Below are positions 3,440 through 40,465 of a stretch of 45,009 nucleotides of DNA, piece by piece; position 1 is the first letter of the stretch, and each line of letters opens with the position of its first letter. The translations under genes and the position numbers were made by a program. The stretch is from a virus. Below the pieces are notes generated by a model. That model searched no databases, was not told the DNA's origin, and saw nothing but the letters and a program-made list of their open reading frames with translations. The DNA lies in the UHGV virus genome UHGV-0208172, one strand, 5' to 3'.

Positions 3440-5530
3440 ATGTCAAGCGGATGCGGTGACGTTTTAAGCCTGGCGGATTTACAGACCGCCAAGAAACACC
3501 AAATATTTGAAGCTGAGGTTATCACCGGTAAATCCGGTGGGGTTGCTACGGGTGCTGATATTGATTACGCAACAAATCAGGTTACGGGGCAGACGCAGAA
3601 GACCCTCCCTGCCGTGTTGCGTGATGCGGGTTTTTCTCCGGTGTCGTGGGACTTTTCTACCGGTGGCACTCTCACGGCTAACGACCGCGACAAAGTGGTG
3701 TATGACCCCGTAAGTAAAACATGGTATTCGTACGCAGGTACGTTACCAGTTGTTGTACCCGCTGGTTTTAATCCGGTAGGTAACGCTAACTGGAAACCGC
3801 AGACGGACCCCGATTTGCGTAACGAGCTTACCGCATACGATGGGACCACGGTTGACCAGATTGCCCATCGAGTTACGACAATAAAGTCATTTGAAGAGTT
3901 TGGCGCCATTGGCGACGGGGTAACTGATGATACCTCAGCGATGCTGGCGGCATTGTCGTGGTTGGAGGGGGTGCCGTTTGGTAAATTAACAGGGCGAGTT
4001 GGGGCTAAATACCGCATACAACAGAGCCTGGTAATGAAGTTCGACGGCTCTTATACACAGGAGGTTACCTCTACAAGGTATATTGATTTCACCGGAACAA
4101 CAATCGTAGCAGGAGCTTCTGGCATCACATGCTTAAGAATGAGCCATGATTTCTGCCACATCATAAATCCAGTAGTAATTAACCCAGACAACTACTCTGA
4201 CGTTATCGCCTACGCTATCGCGCCAGAAGACGAATCTCAGACTACCGTACGCGTATCACAGCAATTCTGTGTAATGGAGAATCCACGCGCAAGGGGAACC
4301 AAAATTGGTCTTAAGTTTAAACCAGGGCCTACAGTCGGTGGGAGTAATAGCGGTGCGTATTACCACTCAATTATGAACCCAAACTTTGAGCGAGTAGACT
4401 GCGGGTTTTATTTCGAACGTAGTGTAAGCGGAGATAATAATAACACCCGCATTCATATATACGACCCGCACCATGCAACTGGGAACTGTAGCTTCTGGAT
4501 TGAAAGTACAGATAGCCTTCGTGTATTCGGTGGGCACTCAGAAAATATTACACAAGGCACTTGGCCCGCAGACGTGCCTTGTGCAGTGCGTGTTGTTAAG
4601 ACGGTGAACAGTGACACCCAAGTTGCCGGTAACTTGCGATTCTATGGTTACTTTGGCGAATTATGCACTCGTGGGTATCAGATAGATGATAACGTTGGTA
4701 CGTATAACAATTTCTTTGATTGGAGTTGGGTATTCTTAGACCAAACCCCGACACGTGCAGTAGATAAACCTTTTGAATCATTAGCAGAATTCGATGGTGT
4801 ACTTGTCTCTAGTAACTGGGATTCAACCCAGAAGAATATTGCTGGTTGTCGTAGAAGAGAATCTGGTAAACAGGCAGTAATCATACAGAACGATGATACT
4901 TTACCAGCGGAATTATACTCAGACACGAAGTGGAAATTCACATCATCTGTGCTGGAAGCTCCTGTTCAGGATGTAAGGAATAATAACAGTGGTATTCAGA
5001 TTATTGGGGCTACTGACGCAGGGGTTTTAATAACCACAACTCCAGGAACTAAAGGAATAACCCTGTCCAGTTATGATGGCAAAACATCATCTGGAAACCC
5101 AAATGGCGACTTCACCATCACCGGGTATAATGGGTTCCTTCCTGGTGCGGATAACTCTACAGTGCTGGGGTATACAGGCCACAGGTGGAGCGCAGTGTAC
5201 GCTGCGTCCGGGACTATAGTTACATCTGACGAAACGTACAAGACATTCACTACCCCATCCGACGACGAGGCTGCGCGCGAAGCAAACGCAGCAAAAGAAA
5301 TACGTTGCTCACTTCGTAGGTATAAGTTTAACGAGTCTGTCGCTGCTAAAGGTTTCGAATCGGCACGCACACACTTCGGGGTAGGTGCGCAGACAGTGGA
5401 GTCTATTCTGATGTCCAATGGGTTGAACCCTGATAATTATGCGTTTCTGTGCAAGGATGAACTGGATGGTCGGTTTGTGTATTCAATACGGTATGAAGAA
5501 TTATTGGTTTTCCTCATGATGTATTCATAA
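3440..5530 (+). CDS. tailspike / tail fibre with right-handed beta-helix depolymerase domain (pectate-lyase superfamily-like)
   Basis: 696 aa; RBS AAGAGGA upstream; motif FGAIGDGVTDDT typical of pectate-lyase-fold phage depolymerases; last gene of tail module; possible C-terminal chaperone-like domain. Confidence 0.8.
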   Translation: MSSGCGDVLSLADLQTAKKHQIFEAEVITGKSGGVATGADIDYATNQVTGQTQKTLPAVLRDAGFSPVSWDFSTGGTLTANDRDKVVYDPVSKTWYSYAGTLPVVVPAGFNPVGNANWKPQTDPDLRNELTAYDGTTVDQIAHRVTTIKSFEEFGAIGDGVTDDTSAMLAALSWLEGVPFGKLTGRVGAKYRIQQSLVMKFDGSYTQEVTSTRYIDFTGTTIVAGASGITCLRMSHDFCHIINPVVINPDNYSDVIAYAIAPEDESQTTVRVSQQFCVMENPRARGTKIGLKFKPGPTVGGSNSGAYYHSIMNPNFERVDCGFYFERSVSGDNNNTRIHIYDPHHATGNCSFWIESTDSLRVFGGHSENITQGTWPADVPCAVRVVKTVNSDTQVAGNLRFYGYFGELCTRGYQIDDNVGTYNNFFDWSWVFLDQTPTRAVDKPFESLAEFDGVLVSSNWDSTQKNIAGCRRRESGKQAVIIQNDDTLPAELYSDTKWKFTSSVLEAPVQDVRNNNSGIQIIGATDAGVLITTTPGTKGITLSSYDGKTSSGNPNGDFTITGYNGFLPGADNSTVLGYTGHRWSAVYAASGTIVTSDETYKTFTTPSDDEAAREANAAKEIRCSLRRYKFNESVAAKGFESARTHFGVGAQTVESILMSNGLNPDNYAFLCKDELDGRFVYSIRYEELLVFLMMYS

Positions 5531-5534
5531 AACT

Positions 5535-5559
5535 AAGGCCCCATAACGGGGCCTTTTCT
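5535..5559. terminator. bidirectional rho-independent terminator between convergent tail and replication transcription units
   Basis: AAGGCCCC-ATAAC-GGGGCCTT hairpin followed by TTTTCTC; U-rich on both sides. Confidence 0.6.
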
Positions 5560-8167: not shown

Positions 8168-8452
8168 TTAACTATAATAGTTTGCTATTAGGTCGTCAAC
8201 CTGTTTAAACGACCCGACGACAAAAACATTTGCACCGCGTTTACGCATCCGCTCGTGCTCACGTAACTGGTGCGGGTCTGGCTTCGTGTTTTCGTCTTTC
8301 TTCACCTCGACGAACCAGACGATGCCGCCGGGGAGAATTACCAGCAGGTCAGGTGCGCCGGAACGTCCTTCGTAGGAAAGTTTACGAACGAGACCCCCCA
8401 GGGCCTCGAATCGCTCCTTTGCATATTTCTGTACGCGCCCTTCCGGGGTCAT
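8168..8452 (-). CDS. VRR-NUC domain nuclease
   Basis: 94 aa; PD-(D/E)XK-type signature GAPDLLVILPGGIVWFVEVKK. Confidence 0.75.
   Translation of the reverse strand: MTPEGRVQKYAKERFEALGGLVRKLSYEGRSGAPDLLVILPGGIVWFVEVKKDENTKPDPHQLREHERMRKRGANVFVVGSFKQVDDLIANYYS
8171..8199 (-). promoter_or_regulatory. sigma70-like promoter (class B: TTGACG-N17-TATAGT) embedded in the 3' end of the VRR-NUC gene
   Basis: Read on - strand: TTGACG ACCTAATAGCAAACTAT TATAGT; same architecture as promoters at 11967 and 14705. Confidence 0.5.
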
Positions 8453-11913: not shown

Positions 11914-11966
11914 CTTAATTTCTCGCTTTTAAGTTTACTCCGGGAACTGCCCGGCCAGTGATTAGA

Positions 11967-11995
11967 ACTATAATAGCTAACTATTCAGGTGTCAA
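11967..11995 (-). promoter_or_regulatory. sigma70-like promoter (class B: TTGACA-N17-TATAGT) upstream of SSB-like gene
   Basis: Read on - strand: TTGACA CCTGAATAGTTAGCTAT TATAGT. Confidence 0.5.
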
Positions 11996-11999
11996 CACT

Positions 12000-14673: not shown

Positions 14674-14704
14674 CTGTTTCTCTCCTCTCGTTTGGTATGG
14701 GCTA

Positions 14705-14733
14705 ACTATAATAGCTAACTATTCACGTGTCAA
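14705..14733 (-). promoter_or_regulatory. sigma70-like promoter (class B: TTGACA-N17-TATAGT) with GTGAATAGT operator-like core
   Basis: Read on - strand: TTGACA CGTGAATAGTTAGCTAT TATAGT; 30 nt upstream of ATG at 14673. Confidence 0.55.
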
Positions 14734-14737
14734 CGGG

Positions 14738-29893: not shown

Positions 29894-29916
29894 AAAGGCC
29901 CCATTATGGGGCCTTA
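29894..29916. terminator. bidirectional terminator (AAGGCCCC-ATTAT-GGGGCCTT)
   Basis: Hairpin between convergent + packaging genes and - moron; same family as 5535 and 37986. Confidence 0.6.
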
Positions 29917-30212
29917 ACTTTCCATACTTCCCTTAGCGCTACGAGTTTATGATTACCAATATCCCTTGATATTATTGAATCTGTAAAACCATTGAACCAT
30001 GATTTCATCCAGTCAGACGTTCTGAAATCGGCGTACAGAATATGTATTGTTTGCGGAGTGTCAACGTCGTAATGTTGGCACACATAAACACATCCGCTGG
30101 CGAATATAACAGCTTTAAACGTATCGTAGTCTTCTGAATCCGGGAACTCGCTGGAGTCCCCAACAAGATACCTGTACGCGTATTTTTTAGTAGTCTTCTT
30201 TCTTTTCCGCAT
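29904..30212 (-). CDS. hypothetical protein (102 aa), moron gene
   Basis: Track ORF; last codons lie within terminator hairpin. Confidence 0.45.
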   Translation of the reverse strand: MRKRKKTTKKYAYRYLVGDSSEFPDSEDYDTFKAVIFASGCVYVCQHYDVDTPQTIHILYADFRTSDWMKSWFNGFTDSIISRDIGNHKLVALREVWKVKAP

Positions 30213-30221
30213 AGTACTTTC

Positions 30222-30461
30222 TCAGAAGTGCCTGACGGGTTGTTTAAACTTCCAGTCACAATCTACCTGTTTAATAGCGCCTTTTGCAACAAGGCTGTCT
30301 ATGAAATCCTGGCCCGAATTCGTCTTGTACCACGTATATCTGTTCCCGACTTTTACTCCAGGTAGGCTGTGATACACAACGGCATCAACCACCATAAAAG
30401 AGACACCGATAGCCCCTTTCTCTGCATATAGTTTTTTGCTCACACTGCTCATGTAGCGCAT
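30222..30461 (-). CDS. hypothetical protein (79 aa), moron gene
   Basis: Track ORF in reverse 3-gene operon. Confidence 0.45.
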   Translation of the reverse strand: MRYMSSVSKKLYAEKGAIGVSFMVVDAVVYHSLPGVKVGNRYTWYKTNSGQDFIDSLVAKGAIKQVDCDWKFKQPVRHF

Positions 30462-30493
30462 CTCCCACGTAGATAGTTAGTAAGGTAAAGCCC

Positions 30494-30679
30494 TTAGGCC
30501 TTACGAATTGTATATCCATACCCGAGGTAGCCGTTTTTCTCTTGCATAGCGGAGGCGCGCAACATAGCAGCATTCTCGCCTTTTACTACAGCGACCACAT
30601 AATCCGTAGAGTCTGGGCCGTTTTCCACAACTTCATACGCCTGTACGTTCTTGGTGGTAAGTTCATATGTGTTAGTCAT
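30494..30679 (-). CDS. hypothetical protein (61 aa), moron gene
   Basis: First gene after class A promoter; RBS AAGGAA. Confidence 0.5.
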   Translation of the reverse strand: MTNTYELTTKNVQAYEVVENGPDSTDYVVAVVKGENAAMLRASAMQEKNGYLGYGYTIRKA

Positions 30680-30713
30680 TTCTAAATTCCTTATCTCTCG
30701 TTTCGATAAGTGA

Positions 30714-30742
30714 ATAGTATCCTATTATGTTGGGGTGTGCAA
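30714..30742 (-). promoter_or_regulatory. sigma70-like early promoter (class A: TTGCAC-N17-TACTAT), reverse orientation
   Basis: Read on - strand: TTGCAC ACCCCAACATAATAGGA TACTAT TCACTTATCGAAACGAGAGATAAGGAA...ATG. Confidence 0.6.
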
Positions 30743-36350: not shown

Positions 36351-36809
36351 ATGACCGTCGTCTTGCCTCAGAAGAAAGTAAATGTGGGGTATATGATGGG
36401 CTACTTTGAGGACTTAACAAAAGCGTTCGATGTGCCGCTGGTAGCCTTCGGAACAACCAACGGCATCAAGGTCGCGCTTGAAAACATCGACGCGCCGACG
36501 TCAACCGATACACCGTATCTGGCAAGTTACATGCTGCTTTCGGATACGGAACAGGCGGATTTGTTCTTCACGGAACAACGCTCTGGTATTTATCAGGTCG
36601 ACATTAACTACGCATCGGTGAAAGGTAGCGCACCAATCAATAAAATGGCAGACTTACTTAACACGGCGTTTAAAGCAGGTAAGTCATTTTCGCGTAACGA
36701 CATCTGCGCCGAGGTTCAATCGGTTAGCCTGGGGCCGCTGATTGTAGAAAACGGATGGACCAAACGACCCTTGTCAATTAACTTTATTGCATTCACCAAG
36801 AGGCTGTGA
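36351..36809 (+). CDS. putative tail terminator / tail tube-associated protein
   Basis: About 140-152 aa; immediately upstream of major tail protein. Confidence 0.45.
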   Translation: MTVVLPQKKVNVGYMMGYFEDLTKAFDVPLVAFGTTNGIKVALENIDAPTSTDTPYLASYMLLSDTEQADLFFTEQRSGIYQVDINYASVKGSAPINKMADLLNTAFKAGKSFSRNDICAEVQSVSLGPLIVENGWTKRPLSINFIAFTKRL

Positions 36810-37981
36810 ATATGGCTACAACTCCTTTTAAGGGCGCGAATACCGCGCAATTCTATGTGGCGGAAGTTACCCCGGGCGTAACACCAAGTAACCCGGTATG
36901 GTCGCCGTTGCGTAACACCGGTGGTGTTCCAGCTGTAACTCGCGATGCGCTGACCTCCAACGAACTGGACGGCAGCCGAGAAACCACATCCATCCGAACC
37001 GGTAACAAGCAGGTTAGCGGGGAGTATGCCATCGAACTTAGCTCCCGTAGCCAGGATGATTTCCTCGCGGGCGCGATGACTTCTACGTGGCAGGATGGGG
37101 TAACCTTATCCGCTGTTGGCATTACGGTAGACCCTGTGGCTAAAACCTTTACCCGCGCCACCGGCAGCTTCATTACTGACGGCGTAGAGGTCGGGGACCT
37201 TCTGTATTTTGACGCTTTAACCGGTGATAACTCTAAGCCGTTCATCGTTACCGCAGTAACTGCTACTGTGGTTACGGGTGCAGGTATTCAACACACCCTG
37301 ACCGCCGAAGGTCCTATCGAGACCGACGGTAAAACTGGCGATAAACTGGAAACCAGTAACGCGTGTAAGACGTTCTCCATCCTGACATGGTTCAAAGGGC
37401 AGTGCGGGAACCCGGACGCGTACATGTTGACCAAAGGCGTGGAAATCTCCGGTTTCACCATCGAGCAGGCCGTAAACGCTATGGTAACCGGCAGCTTCCC
37501 GTTCATCGGTCTGAGCCAGGAAATTCTTACCGCGCCGCCGACAGGTTCCGACTTCTCTCAGGTCACATTCACTGATGAGCCGTTCTCGTCGGTTGATGTG
37601 TCTGTGTTCGACGGGTCCACGCCGTTGCGTTGCGATACTCTCACTATCACAAACGACAACGGTGCTTCTGCGCAGTTCGAACTCGGCAACAGTAGCGTTG
37701 CGTTCGTGGAACGTGGTCGCGCGGCTAACACCTTCTCCATCTCTGGTAAGCTGTACGACATGGCGATGATTCAGAAGTTTATCAACGAACAGCAGGTAGA
37801 GATTAACTCTATTCTGGCGGGGGTAAATGGGGCTATGTCTTTTAGTCTGAAACGTGCCGAACTTACGGCGGTTACACCTGAGATTGGCGGCCCTGAGTCA
37901 ATTACTCAGTCCATTGAAGGTCAGGCTACTGGAAACCAGTACCAGTCGTCTATTGTTATCCAGCGTATCGCCTATGCATAA
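36806..37981 (+). CDS. major tail (tube) protein
   Basis: 391 aa; followed by strong bidirectional terminator; position in tail module. Confidence 0.65.
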   Translation: MNMATTPFKGANTAQFYVAEVTPGVTPSNPVWSPLRNTGGVPAVTRDALTSNELDGSRETTSIRTGNKQVSGEYAIELSSRSQDDFLAGAMTSTWQDGVTLSAVGITVDPVAKTFTRATGSFITDGVEVGDLLYFDALTGDNSKPFIVTAVTATVVTGAGIQHTLTAEGPIETDGKTGDKLETSNACKTFSILTWFKGQCGNPDAYMLTKGVEISGFTIEQAVNAMVTGSFPFIGLSQEILTAPPTGSDFSQVTFTDEPFSSVDVSVFDGSTPLRCDTLTITNDNGASAQFELGNSSVAFVERGRAANTFSISGKLYDMAMIQKFINEQQVEINSILAGVNGAMSFSLKRAELTAVTPEIGGPESITQSIEGQATGNQYQSSIVIQRIAYA

Positions 37982-37985
37982 AACT

Positions 37986-38008
37986 AAGGCCCCGTTTGGG
38001 GCCTTTTT
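37986..38008. terminator. bidirectional rho-independent terminator (AAGGCCCC-GTTT-GGGGCCTT + T5)
   Basis: Hairpin plus TTTTT; separates major tail gene from convergent reverse cassette. Confidence 0.7.
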
Positions 38009-38009
38009 C

Positions 38010-38564
38010 TTACAAACCTAATCTTAAAGCAATGCCTATAGCGTTCGATTTAACGTAACCCGGTATGATGTAGGTGTCATAATCTTTTACGCCATCAATA
38101 TCGTACAGGTAACCACGGCTGTCCCCTTCAAACGTATAGCCGTCTCTGTGCAAGCGAACGATTCTCACATCATGCCCCGCGGCAACGATAGGGGCCACTT
38201 CGCTGGCGAATCCACCGTCGGAAACTACAAAAACTTCGTTGCCGCCGGGCAAGTTTTCAGCAAGATACTTACCGAAATAATCACTACCAAGTACCGGTTT
38301 AATGAATTGTTCAGAGATAGCAATCATGAACTGACGTCGCGACAAACCATTAAGGAAGCCTTCCGGCTTTTCTTTCCGCGCTCGGTCGTCGTAGCCGTCG
38401 AGAAATTCGTGGTAAGCATCAGGGCCTAACGCCGCCAGGGCAACATTGAACATTGGATTCTTGAAACTGGCAGTTCCTTTTGCAAAGCCCATTTCTACCA
38501 GTGCCATAGCAAGAGTGTCTTTCCCGCAACCAGCAGGACCATTAAGAATAATTACCTTAGCCAT
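38010..38564 (-). CDS. P-loop nucleotide kinase, dNMP-kinase-like (T4 gp1-like) or polynucleotide 5'-kinase
   Basis: 184 aa; Walker A GPAGCGKDT at N-terminus; overall pattern resembles phage dNMP kinases. Confidence 0.65.
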   Translation of the reverse strand: MAKVIILNGPAGCGKDTLAMALVEMGFAKGTASFKNPMFNVALAALGPDAYHEFLDGYDDRARKEKPEGFLNGLSRRQFMIAISEQFIKPVLGSDYFGKYLAENLPGGNEVFVVSDGGFASEVAPIVAAGHDVRIVRLHRDGYTFEGDSRGYLYDIDGVKDYDTYIIPGYVKSNAIGIALRLGL

Positions 38565-39049
38565 TATTTATCACTCCCGTGCGATTTTAAGTGTGTAGAG
38601 TTCCCGTTACAGTCGTATTCAGTAACCGCGTGAGTGGTTATACCGAGGCCGCGGAAATGCTTTATTACCGCTGGCGAGTCGTCGAACGCACACAAGATTC
38701 TTTCTAGCCCGATCGCACGCAACACCTCTTCTTTAATTACGATGTCTTTTCTGTTGTCGTGTTTGCTGCGCATGATTAGCTGATAAAATTCGACGCGGTG
38801 GCGCTGCAGCCACATTCTGGTTTCTTTTTCTGCATCATCACTACGGCCCGTTAAAATAATAACGGCATAGCGACGATTGAGGGCGTTACACAGTTCGATG
38901 TTATCTCTAATTGGTTCATCATCTTTGCACGCCATGTTAAATGGCTTCCACGCCCACGTTTCGTCGTAGTTATCTTTCGGCAGCAGGTGCAAACGATGTG
39001 TCCCATCCGCCAATGTCCCGTCTAAATCGAAAATTACAATATCTTTCAT
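38564..39049 (-). CDS. HAD-superfamily phosphatase, polynucleotide-kinase 3'-phosphatase-like
   Basis: 161 aa; N-terminal FDLDGTLA motif, ILTGR, KEEV...FDD motif pattern like T4 Pnk phosphatase domain. Confidence 0.7.
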   Translation of the reverse strand: MKDIVIFDLDGTLADGTHRLHLLPKDNYDETWAWKPFNMACKDDEPIRDNIELCNALNRRYAVIILTGRSDDAEKETRMWLQRHRVEFYQLIMRSKHDNRKDIVIKEEVLRAIGLERILCAFDDSPAVIKHFRGLGITTHAVTEYDCNGNSTHLKSHGSDK

Positions 39050-40176
39050 CCCAGCATCTCCGGTGAAATAGTTAAACGTGCGACCTCGCCATATTCGGCG
39101 CTATAAGTAATTACATTTGCGCTACGGCCTGACATCCATCCGCCGCGGGAGGCGTAGGCGTCTTTAGCCGCTAAGGTGCGGTGTTGCTCAACAATCATGT
39201 TACGGCTTTCTACAATCTTCTGGTGGTGGAGATGTCCGACATGTGCGTAGCTGTACTCGCTTTCGCCAAATGCTTTGCGGAACTTAGCTATCATAATGGG
39301 TTCGACCACCTCAAACCGGCATTTATGCCCGTGTGTAAAGAACAGCGTCGTTTTCCCGTGTTGCACCATCTTGTAAACATCCGGCGACGTATCGACGAAC
39401 ACACGAGGCTCATTGCCATACAGTGTACTGAACATCTCAGCCAACCAAATCATTCCGCTTTCGTCGTGGTTCCCTTGCACGATAAGCAAGCGAACATTTT
39501 TATGTTTAACAAGGGCCATATCGACAACACGGCGGACCATACGAATCATGTAGCGGACCAGTTTCTGATAGCGTGTATCCGCATCAAGAACATGACCACT
39601 TGCGGGTGTAACTGCATCCAGGCTATCGAAGTGAGCGAGGTCGCCCAGCAGATTAATAACTCCTGTTCCTGCATCCGGTGCTTTCTGAAACGCTGCATCG
39701 AACCAACGAGAGAACAGGTCTTCTGCAATCTTCATATCCCAGTCGTCGCCGCTCTCGTCGGCCCAGGCCAGCATACCGAGATGGAAATCAGATACCGTGT
39801 AAAGATTAAGTAGCTTGTCGTCGCGTTTTGCTCGAGTCGCTTTAACAGGCGCAACCGGCGTAATCTCTGACTTCATACCTTCAACTACGGCTTTCATCAA
39901 TTCAACCTGACGTTCGGCGTCTGTGTCGGTCTTAACCCATTGCAACTTAGTGTTGCCGAACTCGTCTACCAGTGACGACGTTCCTTTAATCTTGTAGCCG
40001 TCTGGTACGAGGTGGCTAACGTCGCGTCCGTGGCCTACGCCTTTCTTAGCCAGCTTCGCTTTACGGATACGAATAACGCGGTCTGAGATGCCGTATTTAC
40101 GGGCGATGTCGATATTCTTCATCCCGGCGTTCAATTCTTCCTGTAACTGTTCGTCGGTTATTTTCTTCTTGGCCAT
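39046..40176 (-). CDS. calcineurin-like metallophosphoesterase with N-terminal HTH domain
   Basis: 376 aa; HTH NIDIARKYGISDRVIRIRK; phosphoesterase motifs SDFH, GDLAHFD, GNHDE, THGH, GHLHH. Confidence 0.75.
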   Translation of the reverse strand: MAKKKITDEQLQEELNAGMKNIDIARKYGISDRVIRIRKAKLAKKGVGHGRDVSHLVPDGYKIKGTSSLVDEFGNTKLQWVKTDTDAERQVELMKAVVEGMKSEITPVAPVKATRAKRDDKLLNLYTVSDFHLGMLAWADESGDDWDMKIAEDLFSRWFDAAFQKAPDAGTGVINLLGDLAHFDSLDAVTPASGHVLDADTRYQKLVRYMIRMVRRVVDMALVKHKNVRLLIVQGNHDESGMIWLAEMFSTLYGNEPRVFVDTSPDVYKMVQHGKTTLFFTHGHKCRFEVVEPIMIAKFRKAFGESEYSYAHVGHLHHQKIVESRNMIVEQHRTLAAKDAYASRGGWMSGRSANVITYSAEYGEVARLTISPEMLG

Positions 40177-40214
40177 GCTTACGTCCTCGTGTTTAGGATT
40201 TGTCCTATACTAGC

Positions 40215-40421
40215 TTACTTCTCGTTAACATTCGAGTTGCACGCCCAGATTAAAATAAAGACCCACGGCAGCATAGCCCAACCAAGAAACAGGTTAGCCA
40301 TGAATATAGCTAACTTCGCTTTATGGTTACGGAAGTACGCAACCAGGAAAGGCGCGAAATAAGCGAGCAGTGCAAACAGAATTAAGGAAACTGGTAAACT
40401 GGACATTTTAAACCCCTTCAT
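40215..40421 (-). CDS. superinfection-immunity-family small membrane protein (Imm-like)
   Basis: YFAPFLVAYFRNHKAKLAIFMANLFLGWAMLPWVFILIWA matches conserved pattern of this family; likely start ATG 40406 with AAGGGG RBS. Confidence 0.65.
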   Translation of the reverse strand: MKGFKMSSLPVSLILFALLAYFAPFLVAYFRNHKAKLAIFMANLFLGWAMLPWVFILIWACNSNVNEK

Positions 40422-40436
40422 TGTTGGTGTAAGTGA

Positions 40437-40465
40437 ATAGTACCCTATTATATTGGGGTGCGCAA
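40437..40465 (-). promoter_or_regulatory. sigma70-like early promoter (class A variant: TTGCGC-N17-TACTAT), reverse orientation
   Basis: Read on - strand: TTGCGC ACCCCAATATAATAGGG TACTAT TCACTTACACCAACAATG. Confidence 0.55.

Follow-up and report, generated by a model that had tools for sequence, protein, structure and literature searches.

The four reverse-strand genes inside the tail module of the phage genome UHGV-0208172 (45,009 nucleotides, analyzed whole and called the window below) form a block of two layers: a core pair encoding an Imm-family membrane protein and a helix-turn-helix (HTH) metallophosphoesterase (MPE), and an optional pair encoding a HAD phosphatase and a dNMP-kinase-family protein. 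We consider it fairly probable that the block is an early DNA and nucleotide-salvage module, in which the MPE and the HAD protein have predicted functions. The window is a Kagunavirus with 93% identity to annotated K1G-like phages, and the block, which is already annotated in K1G, RP180, and other K1G-like phages, is a known, genus-typical feature of this group and not a new one.

Layout of the block and its transcription signals

As listed in Table 1, the four genes occupy positions 38010-40421, between the tail-tube and tail-chaperone genes, and have their own promoter and hairpin terminator. Overlaps of 1 and 4 nt between adjacent block genes are operon-like, and the flanking plus-strand genes agree with the K1G annotation. 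An earlier interpretation made from the letters of the window (the sequence-only reading) had called the same four ORFs on this strand at this position, together with the promoter and a bidirectional terminator, and all of these calls proved right.

Table 1. Features of the block and its flanks, in window positions unless residues are given
Feature	Position	Strand	Details
Tail-tube gene	36806-37981	+	391 aa
Bidirectional intrinsic-terminator hairpin	37986-38005	both	AAGGCCCC-GTTT-GGGGCCTT; 8-bp stem, 6 GC pairs
dNMP kinase (DNK), P-loop kinase	38010-38564	-	184 aa; P-loop GPAGCGKDT, catalytic K15
Variable slot, HAD+DNK pair	38014-39045	-	Exact insertion/replacement vs close relatives
Stand-alone HAD phosphatase, T4 Pnkp phosphatase-domain type	38564-39049	-	161 aa
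HTH-metallophosphoesterase (MPE)	39046-40176	-	376 aa
MPE, N-terminal three-helix HTH	Residues 8-44
MPE, conserved beta-hairpin/helix module	Residues 57-103		Family-specific
MPE, core	Residues 119-370		Complete di-metal site
Imm-family superinfection-immunity membrane protein	40215-40421	-	68 aa as ORF, two hydrophobic helices
Sigma-70-type operon promoter	40437-40465	-	-35 TTGCGC (40465-40460), 17-nt spacer, -10 TACTAT (40442-40437)
Tail chaperone	40574- (start)	+

The promoter is kept in ∼40 related loci of Kagunavirus and Jerseyvirus, where the Jerseyvirus version reads TTGCAT-17-TATTAT, and a second copy (36 nt, 92% identical) lies at 30707-30742. It is overlapped by a TATAAT at 40452-40447, and a consensus scan chooses ATCACA-17-TATAAT there instead. 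The terminator hairpin scores on both strands and is common to the tail-tube gene on the plus strand and the cassette on the minus strand; an 82%-identical copy of it is found at 5522-5559.

The first gene of the block carries the Imm label of the sequence-only reading with good reason, as its product matches Pfam PF14373 (Imm_superinfect; 3.3e-13, 49.7 bits against a cutoff of 27.9 bits) and phrog_1039 in PHROGs (5e-23). The gene at the same site in K1G and SETP7 is annotated as "immunity to superinfection," and two hydrophobic stretches in the sequence describe a small two-helix membrane protein. Its start is probably the ATG at 40406, which follows an AAGGGG ribosome-binding site and would give a protein of 63 aa, as in the K1G annotation.

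A core pair and an optional pair

Comparison with related phages separated the block into its two layers. Imm and MPE were found together at this exact site throughout the Guernseyvirinae, and SETP7 has only these two, with a 76-aa arrangement in place of the HAD and kinase genes. In six Kagunavirus-like loci from IMG/VR, whose MPEs are 91-99% identical over the whole protein, similarity to the window ends at 39046 and returns at 38013; between these points are 223-711 bp that carry a 76-aa ORF and, in some cases, an HNH endonuclease. The MPE stands alone in most of >2000 phage genomes, in Sd1 and EK99P-1, and in 63 of 80 MPE loci. The whole block had been described as accessory, which holds for the HAD and kinase genes, an optional indel, but not for Imm and MPE, which are core to the Guernseyvirinae. 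Nor are the three enzymes an obligate unit, since the MPE occurs alone in most phages and the HAD and kinase genes come and go even among close relatives.

Where the optional genes are present, their order is fixed. Of 80 kinase loci, 63 have HAD upstream of the kinase and on its strand (17 of 25 clusters at 80% identity) and 25 have MPE upstream of HAD, and the order never varies. Webervirus GH-K3 has the complete MPE>HAD>kinase series too, as do the Autographiviridae phages S2 and Bolek, where it directly follows 5′-3′ exonuclease and endonuclease genes. Escherichia phage Rao1 has orthologues of all three, gp56 (MPE), gp57 (HAD), and gp58 (kinase), with 46%, 51%, and 51% identity, in the same order and on one strand; gp58, also called R1DNK, has been proven to be a dNMP kinase and to trigger Kongming. 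The same arrangement is described in Drexlerviridae as [quoted passage not shown] (PMC13164509). In that survey the exonuclease is persistent (508 of 522 genomes), the polynucleotide kinase and dNMP kinase genes are the commonest genes to follow it directly when SH3 is missing, and the authors interpret the latter two as a nucleotide supply (PMC13164509). The setting differs, however: in T1-like phages the block adjoins the lysis genes, whereas in the window it sits within the tail module, on the reverse strand and after the Imm gene, and its HAD and kinase half is an indel in Kagunavirus.

The kinase belongs to the T4 gp1/R1DNK family of dNMP kinases

The kinase matches phrog_139 (1e-43), the family of T4 gp1 and R1DNK, and is a member of that family. 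It aligns with R1DNK over its full length (51% identity, E 7e-61) in the same synteny, and both the catalytic K15 and the escaper site R61 of R1DNK are kept. Its P-loop fits the GxxGxGKD(T) pattern, and G14, K15, and D16 do not vary across 77 homologues. Searches of PDB sequences with the kinase, both single-sequence and profile, gave P-loop matches only, and those with the MPE gave sub-threshold matches, so structure prediction was needed for both proteins; the predicted kinase fold is nearest to the T4 dNMP kinase. R1DNK has been shown biochemically to phosphorylate dAMP, dGMP, dCMP, and dTMP, and we predict from homology that the window kinase likewise converts dNMPs to dNDPs. The resemblance to the 5′-kinase domain of T4 Pnkp is confined to the P-loop, with no structural proximity to polynucleotide or RNA kinases. 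The polynucleotide-kinase role proposed in the sequence-only reading thus fails on family and on the assayed orthologue; profile searches place the protein among the dNMP kinases, an assignment which that reading had itself counted against its proposal.

Labels in public records are misleading for two of the block proteins: "polynucleotide kinase" is attached to a phosphatase-only protein, and "ATPase" or "RFC large subunit" to the dNMP kinase. We rejected a Rad50-like or RFC-like ATPase identity for the kinase, as these labels rest on the P-loop alone.

T4 gp1-family kinases handle hydroxymethyl-dCMP in T4, and the module might on that account make a modified deoxynucleotide for phage DNA. 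We regard this as extremely improbable: apart from DNA methyltransferases the K1G annotation has no base-modifying enzymes, the substrates of R1DNK are canonical dNMPs, and the HAD and kinase pair is dispensable among close relatives. A modified-base pathway, one of the candidate roles suggested earlier, was rejected for want of supporting genes.

The HAD protein is a T4 Pnkp-type phosphatase

The HAD protein matches Pfam PF25109 (HAD_PNKP; 2.8e-19, 70.1 bits against a cutoff of 27.6 bits), as do its T1, S2, and Rao1 orthologues, and its PDB sequence matches are Pnkp1 (4XRP) and T4 PNK (5UJ0/1LTQ), with Pnkp1, from a bacterial RNA-repair complex, as best relative. Its similarity to T4 Pnkp residues 162-300 extends across the whole domain (BLASTP E 4e-8). 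D8, D10, R19, R69, D102, D123, and D124 align with T4 D165, D167, R176, R213, D254, D277, and D278, phosphatase residues reported as essential from mutagenesis by the Shuman laboratory. These matches confirm the T4 Pnk-type label of the sequence-only reading: the protein is a genuine phosphatase of this type with all catalytic residues, and its homology to T4 PseT/Pnkp runs over its entire length. It differs from T4 PseT/Pnkp in that its 161 aa make up the HAD domain alone, with no fused 5′-kinase domain, in that the neighboring kinase is of T4 gp1 type, and in that there is no Rnl partner. By homology, 3′-phosphatase activity on polynucleotide ends would be a candidate function.

The seven residues are also invariant in a multiple alignment that includes T5 Dmp, the 5′-dNMPase of that phage, and puts the catalytic residues of the two proteins in register (DxDGT, R+11, motif II R, KD, DD). 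Because Dmp keeps the same residues in this alignment, they leave the substrate of the HAD protein unfixed. Phage DNKs trigger Kongming, T5 Dmp blocks Kongming by dephosphorylating dAMP, and Dmp homologues often coexist with DNKs; sensing of m6dAMP and of dinucleotides has been described for other defense systems. The HAD protein, tightly linked upstream of a DNK, could therefore be a counter-defense enzyme that is paired with the kinase because of this trigger and acts on dAMP like Dmp, on m6dAMP (Metis, PUA-Cal-HAD), or on pdNG dinucleotides (ApeA). The shared catalytic signature fits such a role, yet Rao1, which has an orthologous HAD beside R1DNK, is Kongming sensitive and is rescued by T5 Dmp in trans. 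In addition, BLASTP similarity to Dmp, which itself has no Pfam match, is limited to motif I (E 0.001), compared with the whole-domain similarity to T4 Pnkp. We hold a counter-defense role of the HAD protein, which would agree with the earlier suggestion that signaling nucleotides are degraded, to be possible but unlikely. Metis and PUA-Cal-HAD also pair a calcineurin-like enzyme (MisA) with a HAD phosphatase (MisB) that acts on mononucleotides from degraded DNA, but they are bacterial defense genes with a PUA sensor domain; the window has no PADLOC matches, and the likeness is one of composition only.

The MPE resembles Mre11-type nucleases

Pfam and PHROGs confirmed the calcineurin-like fold of the MPE, and fold and HTH together agree with its earlier description as an HTH-metallophosphoesterase. 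The protein has the DxH, GDxxH/D, GNH(D/E), H, and GHxH motifs and the MPE sandwich fold, and the top structural neighbors of the predicted structure are the Mre11, SbcD, and PolD-DP1 nucleases. The structure matches Mre11/SbcD best, its di-metal site is complete, and motif II is GDxxH with the Mre11-like, nuclease-type histidine. The GDxxDRG motif II of lambda-phosphatase and CthPnkp was not found, nor was structural proximity to these enzymes, and the cyclic-phosphodiesterase role once suggested for the MPE is accordingly not supported. The sub-threshold PDB sequence matches were to Mre11 and GerE (Mre11/SbcD, E 0.08). The MPE further differs from Mre11/SbcD in that its architecture is not the usual one but has an N-terminal HTH and a beta-hairpin module instead, and in that no Rad50/SbcC partner was found in the K1G annotation or beside the MPE in any inspected locus; we rejected an Mre11-Rad50-type complex for lack of this ATPase.

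A homologue set was built with a profile of 50%-cluster representatives, as a plain search returned only proteins at least 95% identical. The family, with ∼4,700 clusters at 50% identity, is a persistent one in both Drexlerviridae and Guernseyvirinae. NCBIfam yielded nothing specific, BFVD yielded only uncharacterized phage MPEs, and literature searches found nothing on a Kagunavirus or Drexlerviridae metallophosphoesterase and nothing usable on T1 gene 2.5 and host DNA degradation.

The HTH of family members matches the sigma-70 region 4, LuxR, Fis, and LysR families, and an interaction with RNA polymerase has been reported for T5 A1. Both points would suit an MPE that is not a nuclease but a transcription regulator, with an HTH or sigma-region-4-like domain, or a phosphodiesterase of cyclic or linear nucleotides. 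We find this very doubtful in view of the DNA nucleases among the top structural neighbors, the Mre11-like GDxxH, the position of the podovirus gene among DNA exonuclease and endonuclease genes, and the lack of matches of the block proteins to PADLOC and anti-defense families.

With all three enzymes assigned, we could weigh the proposal that they act as a split end-healing system, the kinase on 5′-OH, the HAD protein on 3′-phosphates, and the MPE on 2′,3′-cyclic phosphates, which would repair tRNA or DNA cut by defense nucleases for sealing by a host ligase. The HAD protein is truly Pnkp-type and closest in the PDB to an RNA-repair enzyme, CthPnkp heals cyclic phosphates with an MPE domain, and Erwinia phage S2 has a DNA ligase gene directly after the trio. 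Against this, family, fold, and an assayed orthologue all mark the kinase as a dNMP kinase, the MPE is Mre11-like and mostly occurs without the HAD and kinase, and half of the block is core. The window also lacks a ligase, as had been stated earlier: tblastn with T4 Rnl1 and a T7-type DNA ligase gave nothing better than E 0.2, and none is annotated in K1G. End healing thus appears to us a poor explanation of the block, with little chance of being correct.

Proposed role in DNA and nucleotide salvage

Taking the block as a salvage module, we propose that it would be transcribed as an early operon from its own promoter by host RNA polymerase. The MPE may bind DNA through its HTH and cut or resect it early in infection; its likeliest substrates would be DNA ends or the host chromosome, as the T5 metallophosphatase A1 suggests by analogy. 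The kinase would turn dNMPs from DNA breakdown into dNDPs, as shown for R1DNK, and host NDK would then make dNTPs for phage DNA synthesis. The HAD protein would most likely strip 3′-phosphates from DNA ends or breakdown products, or else trim dNMP pools. Mre11-type nucleases leave 3′-OH ends, and for this reason the MPE would not itself make 3′-phosphatase substrates. Deletion of R1DNK has no detectable fitness cost to Rao1 in the laboratory, and therefore the benefit of salvage may be conditional. Host-DNA degradation by Kagunaviruses is something we infer only from their Ec2ApeA sensitivity.

T5 offers a parallel, as its pre-early A1, Dmp, and Dnk comprise the same three enzyme classes in a similar context of early host takeover and nucleotides. 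The predicted metallophosphatase A1 is both required and sufficient for degrading host DNA and has been described as resembling double-strand-break-repair and proofreading nucleases, like the window MPE, and Dmp has HAD motif I and the catalytic signature in common with the window HAD. However, homology to A1 is not demonstrable (hhalign aligned 22 columns around GNHD, with a probability of 15%), similarity to Dmp is marginal, and T5 excretes the breakdown products, in contrast to the salvage proposed here. In a more specific reading, T1-like and K1G-like phages would degrade the host chromosome with the HTH-MPE, as a functional analogue of A1, and the HAD protein would be a counter-defense enzyme beside the DNK that destroys dAMP (Kongming), m6dAMP (Metis/PUA-Cal-HAD), or pdNG (ApeA), or their precursors, in an operon to "degrade, filter, rephosphorylate." We judge this combination quite unlikely; if true, it would account for the HAD lying almost always directly upstream of the DNK and for the pair moving as a unit.

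The main use of these results is to correct misleading database labels. The HTH-MPE is among the most widespread uncharacterized early genes of virulent enterobacterial phages, and the HAD protein is genetically tied to a kinase that several newly described defense systems exploit. Knowledge of what the MPE and the HAD protein do would show more clearly how host DNA is taken over, and nucleotide-sensing immunity evaded, by T1-like and K1G-like phages.

Organization and source of the cassette

The four genes of the cassette overlap by 1 nt at the kinase/HAD and by 4 nt at the HAD/metallophosphoesterase (MPE) junction, which suggests translational coupling. The sequence-only reading had described four reverse-strand genes with a promoter of their own, and this was borne out by the gene structure: the ORFs and a terminator scoring on both strands lie where it had placed them, and the promoter is kept in ~40 related loci (aligned Jerseyvirus form, TTGCAT-17-TATTAT). 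Two in-frame ATGs of the Imm ORF flank an AAGGGG Shine-Dalgarno sequence, and K1G is annotated with a 63-aa form; the start is therefore probably at 40406 rather than 40421.

Features of the cassette, its neighbors, and the second reverse-strand gene set
Feature	Position	Strand	Length	Detail
Mini-cassette ORF	29904-30212	minus	102 aa	
Mini-cassette ORF	30222-30461	minus	79 aa	
Mini-cassette ORF	30494-30679	minus	61 aa	
Second promoter copy	30707-30742		36 nt	TTGCAC-17-TACTAT
Tail-tube gene	ends 37981	plus	391 aa	cassette neighbor
Terminator hairpin	37986-38005			GC-rich; scored as terminator on both strands
Kinase ORF	38010-38564	minus	184 aa	
HAD ORF	38564-39049	minus	161 aa	
MPE ORF	39046-40176	minus	376 aa	
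Imm ORF	40215-40421	minus	68 aa	
Cassette promoter	40437-40465	minus		-35 TTGCGC, 17-nt spacer, -10 TACTAT
Tail chaperone gene	starts 40574	plus		cassette neighbor

The second promoter copy, 92% identical to the first, precedes another small reverse-strand gene set, a mini-cassette (29904-30742; local GC 0.44) within the head/lysis region; at the matching place K1G has only ~340 bp. The hairpin with its flanks (TAAAACTAAGGCCCC....GGGGCCTTTT) is likewise present twice, at 5522-5559 and 37973-38010 (82% identity), which suggests a terminator module reused where the coding strand switches. A 31-nt element with three copies spread among the minus-strand replication genes (8170-8200, 11966-11996, and 14704-14734) resembles, on the minus strand, a strong sigma-70 promoter (GTTGACAC...N...TATTATAGTT) of a class other than the cassette promoter's.

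The 2.7-kb cassette region matched 295 records, 49 of which covered at least 80% of it. Among the 30 matches listed, K1G-like coliphages and Raoultella phage RP180, which belong to the genus Kagunavirus (Guernseyvirinae), were 86.9-93.1% identical at 95-100% coverage. The K1G RefSeq record has these four genes between "putative tail protein" and "tail assembly chaperone," labeled ATP-binding protein, polynucleotide kinase, DNA repair exonuclease, and immunity to superinfection. According to its depositors, the first two resemble genes of Era103 and T1 and the last two those of SETP3. The cassette is real, sharply bounded, and conserved, yet ordinary for Kagunavirus and previously annotated. 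Public labels for its enzymes are inconsistent and for the most part misleading: among the 30 matches listed, the kinase appears as "replication factor C large subunit," "GTP-binding protein Era," "ATPase," or "helicase"; the phosphatase-only HAD is called "polynucleotide kinase," and the MPE "DNA polymerase II small subunit," "oxidoreductase," or "serine/threonine phosphatase."

A core pair and a swap slot

In the Jerseyvirus SETP7, the same site holds Imm, MPE, and a 76-aa gene without HAD or kinase, and MPE occurs by itself at another genomic location in Sd1 (Rogunavirinae) and EK99P-1 (Dhillonvirus). We scored HAD and kinase within 5 kb of MPE homologues in 80 IMG/VR loci; the trio was found in 13, all Kagunavirus, HAD only in 4, and neither gene in 63. 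Imm and MPE are the core layer of the cassette, and HAD plus kinase are an optional insert. Six Kagunavirus-like loci lack the insert while their MPEs are 91-99% identical over the whole protein; nucleotide similarity to them ends at 39046, in the MPE stop codon, and restarts at 38013, the slot being occupied there by 223-711 bp encoding a 76-aa protein, with an HNH endonuclease besides in one. The MPE stop codon and the terminator delimit what behaves as a swap slot. The exchange with the 76-aa ORF is base for base (38014-39045; L093, L094, L099, and L105-L107). This ORF (MTSKY...DVYDVLRAF...LEKLREYRSNIDE) is the one carried by SETP7; some relatives have, next to it, an additional small ORF or an HNH homing endonuclease.

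The kinase and the HAD phosphatase

Pfam detected only a P-loop in the kinase, PHROGs placed it in phrog_139, dNMP kinase (1e-43), and its BLASTP alignment with T4 Pnkp was restricted to the P-loop region. It is 51% identical over its full length (E 7e-61) to R1DNK, gp58 of coliphage Rao1, the sequence of which is given in a study of the bacterial defence system Kongming (bioRxiv 10.1101/2024.12.20.629578), and 49% identical to the Webervirus VAC2 DNK tested there. In vitro, R1DNK phosphorylates dAMP, dGMP, dCMP, and dTMP, and in vivo it raises dADP; its K15A variant is inactive, Kongming escaper mutations, including R61Q, lie in its gene, and its deletion moderately lowers dATP with no measurable laboratory fitness cost (bioRxiv 10.1101/2024.12.20.629578). 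In the alignment of 77 diverse homologues that served as input for our AlphaFold model (pLDDT 94), K15 is invariant and R61 nearly so. Judged by sequence, the window kinase is an orthologue of this assayed dNMP kinase, and it would convert dNMPs to dNDPs, recycling them for phage replication.

The HAD protein matches Pfam HAD_PNKP (70 bits against a 27.6-bit cutoff), and among solved structures it is nearest in sequence to Pnkp1 (4XRP) and the T4 PNK phosphatase domain. Residues 5-146 align with T4 Pnkp 162-300 (BLASTP, E 4e-8), and in an eight-sequence alignment D8, D10, R19, R69, D102, D123, and D124 correspond to T4 D165, D167, R176, R213, D254, D277, and D278, which we take to be the essential phosphatase residues. 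The protein is a predicted Pnkp-type phosphatase without a kinase domain. T5 Dmp, a 5'-deoxynucleotidase, keeps the same catalytic positions in that alignment, so these residues fix the catalytic machinery and not the substrate; in pairwise comparison, similarity between HAD and Dmp was confined to motif I (E 0.001). Dmp (L008, 124-858), which gave no Pfam match, aligns with the signature motifs of the T4 Pnkp phosphatase (DxDGT, Arg at +11, motif II Arg, K-D, and DD) and may belong to the Pnkp-type HAD clade as a divergent branch. The cassette HAD would act on DNA ends or breakdown products, taking off 3'-phosphates, or would tune dNMP pools.

Around 80 kinase homologues in IMG/VR (25 clusters at 80% identity), HAD lies upstream on the same strand in 63 loci and 17 clusters, directly adjoining the kinase in 30 of the 63 and 0.7-2.2 kb away in the other 33. 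MPE is also present immediately upstream of HAD in 25 loci (8 clusters), always in the order MPE>HAD>kinase, which recurs in Webervirus GH-K3, in Rao1 gp56-58 (46%, 51%, and 51% identity to the window proteins), in Erwinia phage S2 (preceded by genes for a 5'-3' exonuclease and an endonuclease and followed by a DNA ligase), and in Aeromonas phage Bolek (behind exonuclease and endonuclease VII genes). In phage T1 (L007, 4948-6534) an HNH homing endonuclease separates HAD from the dNMP kinase, MPE lying far off; together with the 33 spaced loci (within L029-L068), this suggests repeated insertion, of homing endonucleases or other elements, at the HAD-kinase junction. Upstream of MPE, and not downstream as elsewhere, in two environmental loci (L133, 400-786; L141, 4468-4866), a weak kinase-profile match (E about 1e-10) may represent a different small P-loop kinase. 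In Drexlerviridae, "DNA repair exonuclease" is persistent (508/522 genomes), and in those without the SH3 gene "polynucleotide kinase" and "dNMP kinase" are the commonest genes right after it (PMC13164509, 2026); the arrangement was thus already on record.

The HTH-metallophosphoesterase

The MPE belongs to phrog_704 ("DNA repair exonuclease," 2e-166), a family with 4,665 cluster representatives at 50% identity, nearly all of 370-420 aa, and 2,064 phage records. D130, H132, D179, H182, N236, H237, H282, H315, and H317 are invariant in two alignments and make up a complete five-motif di-metal site, and the N-terminus of family members matches GerE, sigma-70 region 4, Fis, and LysR HTH models. 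The AlphaFold model (pLDDT 84) comprises a three-helix HTH (8-44), a conserved beta-hairpin and helix (57-103), and the MPE core. Its structural neighbors were T. maritima Mre11 (score 14.3), S. aureus SbcD (14.0), Pol delta B subunit (13.4), the MJ0936 phosphodiesterase (13.3), LpxH and E. coli SbcD (12.7 each), and PolD DP1 (12.4); lambda-phosphatase/CthPnkp-type structures were absent from the top 60. A profile comparison against the PDB aligned the family's GDflH on Mre11 GDLLH, at a weak E-value (0.08). These likenesses to Mre11 and SbcD favor a nuclease, our best guess from the model, by a slim margin over small phosphodiesterases; a Rad50/SbcC partner, as Mre11/SbcD have, is neither annotated in K1G nor present beside MPE in the loci inspected. 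T5 A1, a predicted metallophosphatase likened to double-strand-break-repair and proofreading nucleases, is both necessary and sufficient for degrading host DNA (bioRxiv 10.64898/2026.04.02.716235); its homology to the MPE is not demonstrable (hhalign probability 15%). The MPE may act as a DNA nuclease with its HTH as guide, and is possibly the source of host-DNA degradation. Guernseyvirinae are sensitive to Ec2ApeA, of the ApeA defence system, which senses pdNG dinucleotides thought to come from host DNA breakdown.

Discussion

The sequence-only reading labeled the genes correctly for the most part, but its proposal that they form an end-healing set of kinase, 3'-phosphatase, and 2',3'-cyclic phosphodiesterase is not supported: the kinase is a dNMP kinase, the MPE is distributed independently, and a ligase is absent, none being annotated in the K1G RefSeq record or found in the window by tblastn with T4 Rnl1 and a T7-type DNA ligase. 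Of the trio, only HAD stays compatible with end-healing.

Phage dNMP kinases trigger Kongming, which T5 answers with the HAD-like phosphatase Dmp, whose homologues tend to coexist with DNKs, and two further defence systems, Metis and PUA-Cal-HAD, detect m6dAMP released from degraded host DNA. A kinase-linked phosphatase could therefore erase such signals, and HAD might serve counter-defence by removing alarm nucleotides. We consider this unlikely; against it, Rao1 has the orthologous HAD and is still Kongming-sensitive, being saved by T5 Dmp in trans. According to the Kongming authors, Bas26 has a functional Dmp yet is also sensitive (bioRxiv 10.1101/2024.12.20.629578). Guernseyvirinae are sensitive to Ec2ApeA, of the ApeA defence system, which senses pdNG dinucleotides thought to come from host DNA breakdown.

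The cassette was annotated before, an orthologue of its kinase has been characterized experimentally, and published work has already remarked on the order of the three genes; its interest rests on the biochemistry of two proteins, the HTH-metallophosphoesterase, which is very widespread, and the HAD phosphatase linked to the kinase.
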